Below are positions 7,066 to 8,722 of a stretch of DNA of 64,000 bases, in pieces. The DNA comes from an uncultured Gammaproteobacteria bacterium. Its GTDB lineage: Bacteria > Pseudomonadota > Gammaproteobacteria > JACCXJ01. The stretch covers positions 192,001 to 256,000 of the forward strand of contig CAVXTM010000018.1 of NCBI GenBank assembly GCA_963764725.1, written 5' to 3'. The notes beneath the pieces were generated by a model, which was not told the DNA's origin, did not search any database, and was given only the letters and a program-made list of their open reading frames with translations. The position numbers were made by a program, and so were the translations under genes. Positions within the stretch are counted from its first letter, which is position 1; every line of letters begins with the position of its first letter.

Positions 7066-7169
7066 TGGCGCATCTGTAGCACTGGTCGCTTGAAGCAGTG
7101 GCAAGAACAGCGCCTATGCGGAACCTCTAAAAATACCCTCTCCCACTGGGAGAGCAACCGTGTTCAAAG

Positions 7170-8117
7170 TCAAGTGTTTTGCAGCTGCCAAGGGGCATTA
7201 TTTTTCAACATGGCATTCATAATGGTCAGCAGTTTCCGCATACAGGCGACGATCACCACTTTGGCTGGTTTCCCCGCCTGTTTGAGTCTCTCAGCGAAGG
7301 CCTTGAGGACAGAGTTGCACCGGATGGCGGTAACGGTCGCCATATACAGAACGGCTCTGACATCGGCCCTGCCGCCCCAGATGAAGCGCTTACCCCGGTG
7401 TTTTCCGCTGTCGTTCGCCAGCGGCGCCACGCCCACCAAAGCTGCGATCTCGCGGCGATTCAAGCTGCCGAGTTCCGGGCACTTAGCCAGCATCGTCAAG
7501 CTGGTGACGGCGCCGATACCAGGAATGCCTTGCAGCAGATCATCCTTAGCCCGCCAGGCCTCGGAGGCGCGCAAGCGTTTGGTCAAATCAACGTCGAGAT
7601 CAGCAATGCGCTTATCCAGCCAAGCGATGTGCGCCACTAAGCTTTTGCGTGGCAGTTTCGAGGCCGTGCCTAAACGGAGTGTTTCTTGAACGCGTATCTC
7701 GATCAATTGACGGCGCCGCGTCAGGAGTTCATCAAGCTCACGGGTGTCCGCGTCCTTGATAGGTCGCACCGCAGGCCGGATGGCGCGGGCGAAGGCCGCC
7801 AGGACGGCGGCGTCAACCGAGTCGGTCTTCGCCAATTCTCCCGTCGCCTTGGCGAAATCGCGCGCTTGACGGGGATTGATGACGGCGAGGGGCAATCCTT
7901 TCGCCGCCAGTTCACTGGCCAGCCGCACTTCCAGGCCGCCTGTGGCTTCCATAACGATCAACGTCGGTCCAACGGCCACCAGACGCTTGACGAGTTGAGC
8001 GATGCCCTTGTCGTCATAAACGACACGCAGGGCTTCTCCAGTGGGTTCAATACCAATATCCAACGTGCCTTTGGACACATCAATGCCAACAAACTTCTCT
8101 ACAGTGTTCTCGCTCAT
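7170..8117 (-). CDS. IS110 family bridge recombinase/transposase
   Basis: [21 protein letters not shown] (DEDD RuvC-like), IPGIG, GVAP..NDSG (catalytic Ser) and GGRADVR motifs. Confidence 0.95.
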
Positions 8118-8121
8118 ACCC

Positions 8122-8300
8122 CTCCTTGCAAAAATACGGGCTTACAGGCCCCAGCAACCGTTCGGGTTGTCGGTGAGAAAACGGCGCGACGCTCTTTGCT
8201 CTCCCACGGGCTTGATGTCCCAAGGGCTGGACGAGCTGCCGCACCGCAACCAAAGGTCTGTGGATTGATGCCCACCAGCCCCCACAGTCCGAAATACATT
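8122..8300 (-). ncRNA. Bridge RNA of the IS110 element
   Basis: Non-coding end upstream of the recombinase. It carries target guides TCCAGCCCT and TGGGAGAG and donor guides ACGGTTGCT and TGCAAG in IS621-like order, each pair separated by a hairpin. The 5' limit is approximate. Confidence 0.85.
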
Positions 8301-8722
8301 TTCATTAATTTCTACAAAATAGAACATACAAGGGTTAGGGTGAGGGATGTAAATAATTGATTTTAATACCCTCATCCCAACCTTCTCCCGAAGGGAGAAG
8401 GAGACTTTGAATTATTAGAGGTTTCCTATGCTTTACGTGTGCTTCGCGGAGGCGACGGCATCGAGGTCGTCGCGGCTTGCCGACCGCGGTCAGCCCCGAG
8501 TCAGGAAGGGTCGCTACTCACTTGTTGCCTGAAGACTTGATCGAGGCCGTGCCCTGCGGATCGAGCAGGGGCGGTTTATTGGTGGGGGGAATTGGGTGTG
8601 GTAAGAACTCCCTCGGCTGCATTCCTTGGTATTGTGGAGTTCCCAATCAAGCGGTTATATGATGACCGCCGTGATTTATACAGCAATCCGTTCATTGGGT
8701 TAGACACCGGCTTAGACATCTA

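Follow-up and report, generated by a model that had tools for sequence, protein, structure and literature searches.

An IS110-family element and its recombinase

The window, by which we mean the whole 64-kb stretch of DNA analysed here, carries on its minus strand an insertion sequence (IS) of the IS110 family, in which a noncoding left end of 215 nt lies upstream of the recombinase gene and a right end of 16 nt lies past the stop codon (TGA at 7172..7170, with the element end at 7153). Its main parts are the following:

7153..8332, minus strand: whole IS110-family element, 1180 bp with both CT cores, 1178 bp with one
8331..8332, minus strand: left copy of the CT core, read from the sequence
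7153..7154, minus strand: right copy of the CT core, read from the sequence
7170..8117, minus strand: recombinase ORF, 315 aa, with predicted catalytic residues D13, E57, D99, D102 and S237-G238

The boundaries (8332..7153) are fixed by five more copies in the same genome together with empty paralogous sites that have a single CT, and since the empty repeats hold just this one CT, the two CTs around the element represent a duplication of the core. No terminal inverted repeats were seen on reading the two element ends.

The recombinase matches two Pfam domains, PF01548 (E 4.9e-22, 78.8 bits for a cut-off of 29) and PF02371 (Transposase_20; E 8.3e-18, 65 bits for a cut-off of 21.3), and phmmer returned two solved structures only, ISCro4 (9t56, E 1.7e-40, over recombinase residues 8-311) and IS621 (8wt6, E 1.1e-34, over residues 9-311). 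When aligned residue by residue with the latter (the PDB chain index of IS621 being offset by 2), D13, E57, D99, D102 and S237-G238 stand opposite IS621 D11, E60, D102, D105 and S241-G242, and IS621 D11, E60, D102, D105 and S241 make up a composite active site according to the available portion of PMC11208158. A sequence-only reading of this DNA had called the element intact, and it is so in that the 315-aa ORF, both Pfam domains and the catalytic DEDD and Ser-Gly residues are in place. The same reading described the protein as compact, a term that we would drop, as 315 aa is not notably small against 326 aa for IS621 and a chain of 341 residues for ISCro4. The recombinase is the sole member of its 90% identity cluster, and the nearest relative found in our species-genome scan is 82% identical.

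Four candidate guides in the leader

The noncoding left end can be read as a putative bridge RNA, with the modules following one another as a predicted 5' stem-loop, a target-binding loop and a donor-binding loop:

8258..8287, minus strand: predicted 5' stem-loop (CUGUGG...CCACAG), present in the MFE and centroid folds and outside the covariation test
8182..8246, minus strand: target-binding loop module, outer stem 8246..8233 with 8194..8182, inner hairpin 8222..8207
8223..8231, minus strand: left target guide UCCAGCCCU, 5' strand of the internal loop, co-varying with left flanks
8199..8206, minus strand: right target guide UGGGAGAG, 3' strand of the internal loop, co-varying with right flanks
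8107..8179, minus strand: donor-binding loop module, outer stem and inner hairpin 8151..8138, from the guide-constrained fold
8153..8161, minus strand: left donor guide ACGGUUGCU, the same as the right end plus core at 7161..7153
8125..8130, minus strand: right donor guide UGCAAG, pairing with CTTGTA at 8332..8327 with one G-T wobble
8127..8121, minus strand: Shine-Dalgarno sequence AAGGAGG, within the donor-loop outer stem
8117..8115, minus strand: recombinase AUG, within the donor-loop outer stem

The guides had been proposed from the letters alone, and both donor guides and the right target guide stand as they were described. Thus ACGGTTGCT at 8161..8153 recurs at 7161..7153, a segment made up of the element end and the CT core; TGCAAG at 8130..8125 is complementary, in reverse, to the left end CTTGTA if one G-T wobble is allowed; and TGGGAGAG at 8206..8199 matches the reverse complement of CTCTCCCA (7154..7147) at every position. 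The left donor match is weak on its own, as ACGGTTGCT occurs just twice in the 64-kb window where 0.42 copies would be expected by chance, and two or more copies of the 9-mer turned up in 7/100 shuffles.

As set out in the available part of PMC11208160, left guides pair with the bottom strand (and hence have the sense of the top strand) and right guides with the top strand, with the core included in each. All four guides in the window obey this rule, which changes how the left target guide is to be scored. The earlier figure of six matches in nine is right for the identity of TCCAGCCCT (8231..8223) to CCTAACCCT (8339..8331), but not for pairing, which is 8/9: because left guides pair with the bottom strand, the U/C and G/A non-identities are rU-dG and rG-dT wobbles, and one true C-A mismatch is left. 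With the commonest variant of the host repeat described below, the same guide pairs 9/9 (wobble counted). The suggestion that the element tolerates left-guide mismatches was therefore overstated, since wobble restores the pairing to 8, 8, 9, 8 and 9 of nine positions at the five repeat-borne copies. The right target guide pairs 8/8 at all five, with one U-G wobble at four of them.

Predicted fold and covariation among relatives

To place the leader in a family, we used a species-genome scan that yielded 66 loci, of which 23 have the 5' region and 19 were aligned with the window; the alignment left out L022 (target loop truncated), L042 (the same as L039), and L044 and L049 (divergent). Relatives L022-L048 were found in Rhodocyclaceae, Gallionellaceae, Sideroxydans, Thiomonas, Chromatiaceae and other MAGs and genomes, with recombinases 63-82% identical to that of the window in L022-L038, L046 and L047 (L037, 51%). 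They share the RNA architecture, donor arms and junction promoter of the window element, but differ from it in their target guides and flanks.

Across the resulting 20 sequences (the window and 19 relatives), a manually built two-loop structure of 25 pairs has 94.1% of its cells paired and changes on both sides in 12/25 pairs. This support was reached by 0/500 shuffles on any of five measures, and pairing fell to 29.5-45.2% when the partners were slid by 1 to 3 columns. The changes on both sides lie in the target-loop outer stem (9/13 pairs, with 94.6% of cells paired) and in the proximal outer stem of the donor loop (3/4 pairs). The inner hairpins are near-invariant (2/4 pairs and, in the donor loop, 3/4 pairs are constant throughout, with two-sided changes in none) and give little covariation signal.

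Thermodynamic folding recovers these modules in part. Single-sequence folds reproduce the target-binding loop module, and the window sequence with its four guides held unpaired folds into the same two loops, with the guides in internal loops. Without such a constraint, folding of all 233 nt of the leader did not outdo shuffled sequences (z = -0.57): the target-binding loop came out correct, the donor-binding loop wrong and the far 5' end mis-paired with the 3' end. RNAalifold, run on the 20-sequence alignment, recovered the target-loop outer stem with many compensatory pairs. It also joined a portion of the left donor guide to the region of the right donor guide, in near-invariant columns that have no change on both sides; we rejected this pairing because it follows from the donor arms themselves. 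When 6900..8700 was scanned against Rfam (E up to 1), no model matched on the strand of the bridge RNA, and a lone sX15 match on the opposite strand (21.9 bits for a gathering score of 55, E 0.68) was treated as chance. Overall, the folding and covariation analyses support the two-loop fold with guides in internal loops that the earlier reading implied.

The guides were examined in a similar manner, by scoring the loop strands of each locus against its own flanks and against those of other loci with equal register freedom. The left target guide scored 7.83/9 with its own flank vs. 6.42/9 with other loci (18/20 loci, with L023 and L037 left out as having no left flank; 0/5000 permutations), and the right target guide 7.12/8 vs. 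5.17/8 (17/20 loci, without L026, L035 and L037, in which the right flank is too short or the right end not recognisable; 0/5000 permutations). Poor pairing with their own flanks was seen in L035 (6/9, left) and in L033, L046 and L048 (6/8, right). Wobble pairs showed no enrichment in this test, as counting them gained 1.11 pairs with the own flank vs. 1.38 with other loci, which gives no sign of a special use.

Concerning the donor guides, the first eight positions of the left guide agree with the right end in 23/24 loci, the exception being L035, whose right end is degenerate. Guide variants (ACAG.., ACAGTC.., ATAG..) come with matching right ends in L022, L037, L043, L044, L048 and L049, and these six loci are counted within the 23. 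The ninth base of this guide is T in 16 loci, C in six and A in two, so that C or A stands opposite the core T in 8/24. One search for right ends used the guide itself and is not independent, while the right ends in two other listings are. The right donor guide of the relatives reads GCAAG or ACAAG opposite CTTGTAT, and it has no covariation signal because CTTGTAT is invariant in the family.

It is thus the covariation of target guides and stems, not the matching of strings, that sets the guides above chance. The layout and CT core of an IS621-type bridge recombinase, as originally proposed, find agreement in guide sense, fold, covariation and catalytic residues alike.

A host palindromic repeat as the target

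The element splits a palindromic repeat of the host, which belongs to one of two types:

8333..8346, minus strand: left half of the split type-A repeat, CCCTCACCCTAACC, with the 7-nt left target at 8339..8333
7136..7152, minus strand: right half of the type-A repeat, CTCCC AGTG GGAGAGGG, with the right target CTCCCA at 7152..7147
8369..8403, plus strand: partner type-B repeat, CCCTCATCCCAACCTTCTCCC...GGGAGAAGG (C18:200369 is window 8369)

The target guides match the repeat as CCCTCACCC-nnn-CC|CT|CTCCC[G/A], and occupied sites read CCCTCACCC[C/T][A/C][A/G]CC-CT-CTCCC[G/A]. In the repeat hairpin, which lies 3' of the insertion site, the 5' arm consists of the core and right target, and this hairpin, with a T run, gives a terminator-like sequence just past the element (7154..7138). 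A second pattern hit, at window 57920, falls inside an ordinary coding region and was set aside as chance.

A census of the genome distinguishes the two repeat types, which often occur as inverted pairs. Type A (CC-CT-CTCCC) is present as 12 intact and two variant repeats besides five occupied ones, and type B (CC-TT-CTCCC) as 13 repeats, none of them occupied. The numbers (five vs. 0/13) are too small for a claim that type A is preferred. The partner of the split repeat follows this arrangement, as it is inverted relative to the type-A repeat and carries TT at the position of the type-A CT core. Six unoccupied sites in the genome pair fully with both target guides, and three of these are empty type-A repeats.

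The left target guide has U and G exactly where the type-A repeats of this genome vary (C/T and A/G). Elsewhere in the family, L029 and L043 aim at ..CCC-CT-CATCC.., a position unlike the CC-CT-CTCCC of the window element. It is tempting to speculate that the family shows natural retargeting within a GGGAGAGGG-type repeat superfamily, with features tuned to the repeats, although we hold this to be rather unlikely. Under such retargeting, wobble would let one RNA serve several repeat alleles, the partner type-B repeat would be kept out by its TT in place of CT, and the hairpin that includes the core and right target would help to define the site by its structure, as a mirror image of the 5' stem-loop gate reported for ISPpu10. 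As a separate observation, the target of L029 and L043 resembles the start of the repeat tail in the window's genome.

Copies of the element in the genome

Six copies of the element were found in the genome of the window. Five of these lie in one repeat type, CCCTCACCCnnnCC-CT-CTCCC[G/A], and in one orientation, so that the targeting of a host REP, put forward from this locus alone, is borne out by the mapped copies. CT flanks copies c1 (the window copy), c3, c4, c5 and c6. The full 315-aa ORF is retained in c1, c3, c4 and c6, while c2 and c5 are frameshifted, and c3 has a 29-nt insertion inside the 5' stem-loop with guides identical to those of the window.

Copies c1, c4 and c6 are sequence-identical over 1180 bp. 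In c6, a 1045-bp IS interrupts the left end after 33 nt, between the -10 box and the RNA; this insert encodes a frame of 325 aa that contains CxxC pairs, ends in inverted repeats and is accompanied by a short duplication of its target, and we take it to be an IS1595-like element. The identity of c1, c4 and c6 at separate loci indicates recent copying, and these three copies, two fully intact and one interrupted in its left end, point to recent activity. One solo right-end relic and one truncated relative are also present in the genome.

A putative circle-junction promoter and the proposed mechanism

The two element ends hold the halves of a putative promoter:

8323..8328, minus strand: TATGTT, -10 half of the junction promoter, beginning 2 nt past the core
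7168..7173, minus strand: TTGACT, -35 half of the junction promoter, in the right end and overlapping the TGA stop (7172..7170)

A sigma-70-like promoter (TTGACT-17-TATGTT, with a consensus score of 9/12 as a sequence match) forms only across the junction of a circular form, and none was found in the integrated copy. The same geometry is seen in 17/19 loci that have both ends, with L041 and L043 differing.

Contigs from three metatranscriptome runs cover the RNA region, at 8145..8295 (X9), 8159..8270 (X11) and 7942..8323 (X12), with 0 to 3 differences. Such contigs cannot show the start, end, strand or level of a transcript and may derive from DNA, so that they are no more than compatible with transcription of the bridge RNA. 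Contig depth in X11 is higher over 8159..8270, and neither this nor the stretches that lack contig cover were taken as evidence. Among the contigs of the sequencing runs with the stretch, in each of which under half of the sampled words were present, none ran from the right end into the left end.

By analogy with IS621, excision would yield a circle in which the junction of right and left ends rebuilds the TTGACT-17-TATGTT promoter, and this promoter would drive the bridge RNA and probably the recombinase mRNA too. An RNA-bound tetramer of the recombinase might then synapse the circle junction with a type-A repeat, and strand exchange beside CT, in which Ser237 and the DEDD site would act, would leave the element between two CTs.

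Alternative explanations

We consider it very likely, judging from these sequence comparisons, that the element is an autonomous IS of the IS110 group, of the IS621 and ISCro4 kind, with a bridge RNA encoded in its leader and directed at a host repeat. If the leader were instead an ordinary 5' UTR with a part in translational control, the “guides” would be chance matches or by-products of end recognition by the protein alone. The position of the Shine-Dalgarno sequence and AUG within the donor-loop outer stem, through which the fold would also affect translation, is in keeping with such a leader, as are the weak significance of the donor 9-mer taken alone (two or more hits in 7/100 shuffles) and a whole-leader fold no better than shuffles. 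Yet the target guides co-vary with their own flanks (0/5000 permutations, twice), donor-guide variants follow the right-end variants, 12 stem pairs have compensatory changes, and the layout is the one established experimentally for IS621 in the available part of PMC11208160. Translational and guide roles are moreover compatible with each other, and a leader without guides appears very improbable to us. Members of the IS1111 subgroup have a guide RNA (seekRNA) downstream of the gene and subterminal inverted repeats. The two Pfam domains are common to that subgroup and to the IS110/IS621 subgroup and would fit either, but just 16 nt separate the stop codon from the element end, which therefore leaves no room for a downstream guide RNA; the four guides sit together in a structured RNA on the upstream side of the gene, and no inverted repeat was seen on reading the two ends, so that we give placement in IS1111 almost no credence.

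A different doubt concerns the state of the family, which could be genuine in its bridge RNA and still be a decaying relic in this genome, having lost transposition. Such decay would be consistent with the frameshifts in c2 and c5, the splitting of c6 by the 1045-bp IS, the solo right-end relic and truncated relative, and the six fully pairing sites that are still unoccupied. Against it stand the identity of c1, c4 and c6 over 1180 bp, the full ORFs of c1, c3, c4 and c6, and the intact catalytic residues, and we think that loss of transposition is improbable here. 

With this element there is one more fully decoded natural bridge recombinase system, with its recombinase, an RNA of ~200 nt, its donor and a 15-nt target read with an 8-nt right guide. 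Its lineage is distant from IS621 and ISCro4, and it could become a further scaffold on which to build programmable recombination. Within its own genome, the element accounts for six insertions, for a nested IS and for at least one rearrangement of old date in which a tRNA-Val gene was duplicated.

Comparison with known systems

IS621 has a host palindromic repeat as its target, and like the window element has a right donor that starts TGTAT. The available sections of the two IS621 papers (PMC11208160; PMC11208158) describe further features that the window shares: a DEDD RuvC-like domain and a Tnp domain with a catalytic Ser-Gly, a CT core, and a promoter rebuilt across the circle junction. 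Those of PMC11208160 add an RNA in the left end with the same order of 5' stem-loop, target loop and donor loop, and a 9-nt left guide with the core, a shorter right donor guide and the same strand rule. The recombinases are distant in sequence (phmmer E 1.1e-34), and the window element has another donor left arm and another repeat family as target. Its left end is 215 nt long vs. 191 nt in IS621, and its right target guide has 8 nt vs. 4 nt in wild-type IS621, extendable to 7 (both from the same available sections of PMC11208160). No ribosome or start codon is mentioned for IS621 in those sections. ISCro4 (PDB 9t56) is the best solved relative, with aligned catalytic motifs, in a comparison of the proteins alone.

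A close parallel in targeting is ISPpu10 of Pseudomonas putida, an IS110 element with a bridge RNA that, according to the available part of its description (bioRxiv 10.64898/2026.03.19.712850), inserts only in host REPs; the window element is likewise repeat-targeting. In both cases the repeat stem-loop overlaps the guided target and the repeats occur in close convergent pairs, but the stem-loop of ISPpu10 lies 5' of the site and includes the left target, whereas the hairpin at the window lies 3', with the core and right target as its 5' arm (same source, available part).

Thousands of IS110 pairs of RNA and target have already been analysed, as stated in the available text of PMC11208160. With IS110 bridge RNAs, repeat targets and junction promoters already described, the understanding of bridge-RNA systems is unchanged by this locus, and the window element is a well-supported but ordinary addition to the known IS110 bridge-RNA class.

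Relics and altered copies in the host genome

The element copies, relic and relative described in this section lie outside the window, on contigs C2, C10, C11 and C18 of G000, the genome that holds it, where further copies of the IS110-family element (c2 to c6, the window copy being c1) occur together with a second relative of the same family. Copy c2 (locus L006, C18:332184-333960) is degenerate, with its left CT replaced by GT, and is bordered on both sides by a direct duplication of ~195 bp (96.9% identity between the duplicates). The duplicated segment begins at the right target in a type-A repeat (i.e., the host palindromic repeat with CC-CT-CTCCC that the element targets), and the left duplicate carries an intact type-A repeat at its start. 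Because a tRNA-Val(GAC) gene is included in the duplicated segment, this tRNA is present in two copies. The duplication around c2 looks like an old IS-linked rearrangement.

Copy c6 is interrupted by a 1045-bp element (C10:249113-250157), which entered 33 nt into the left end and separates the -10 box of the circle-junction promoter from the bridge RNA (the guide RNA encoded in the left end). This insert, which we take to be IS1595-like, has terminal inverted repeats, a 325-aa frame with CxxC pairs, and a short duplication at its flanks. A solo right-end relic at C11:16361-16478 corresponds to the element's final 126 bp (86% identity), and its junction with the right half-repeat of type A is preserved. 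Separately, in copy c3 (C18:74908-74888) the 10-11 nt with which the left end begins (CTTGTATGTT) occur in tandem, and two right-donor sites therefore follow the left target of this copy.

The second IS110-family relative (C2:about 154860-154420) is truncated. It has a separate left end (..CATC-CT-TGTATC) and a bridge RNA of its own, whose left target guide GUGCGUCCU pairs with the flank CTGCATCCT at 8/9 positions. Its recombinase ORF ends abruptly after ~45 codons, and the adjoining sequence resembles the portion of a succinate dehydrogenase/fumarate reductase flavoprotein gene that encodes the C-terminus.

In the window, Rfam matched the Xanthomonadaceae sRNA sX15 antisense to the bridge RNA (8113-8253, plus strand); this match is sub-threshold (21.9 bits vs. 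a gathering score of 55, E 0.68), and probably arose by chance.

Host repeats and targets of sister elements

Window 7136-7154 and 8333-8403, and genome-wide census: host repeats of two types, with CCCTCTCCC stems and with CCTTCTCCC stems

Genome-wide, these repeats frequently form inverted pairs spaced by <60 bp, which resemble BIME clusters, and a type-A repeat followed by a T run was scored as an intrinsic terminator. For sister elements L029 and L043, from a Chromatiaceae MAG and from Salinisphaera, guides and flanks indicate a ..CCC-CT-CATCC.. target just upstream of a CCTTCTCCC hairpin, so that the position used relative to the hairpin differs from that of the window's element.
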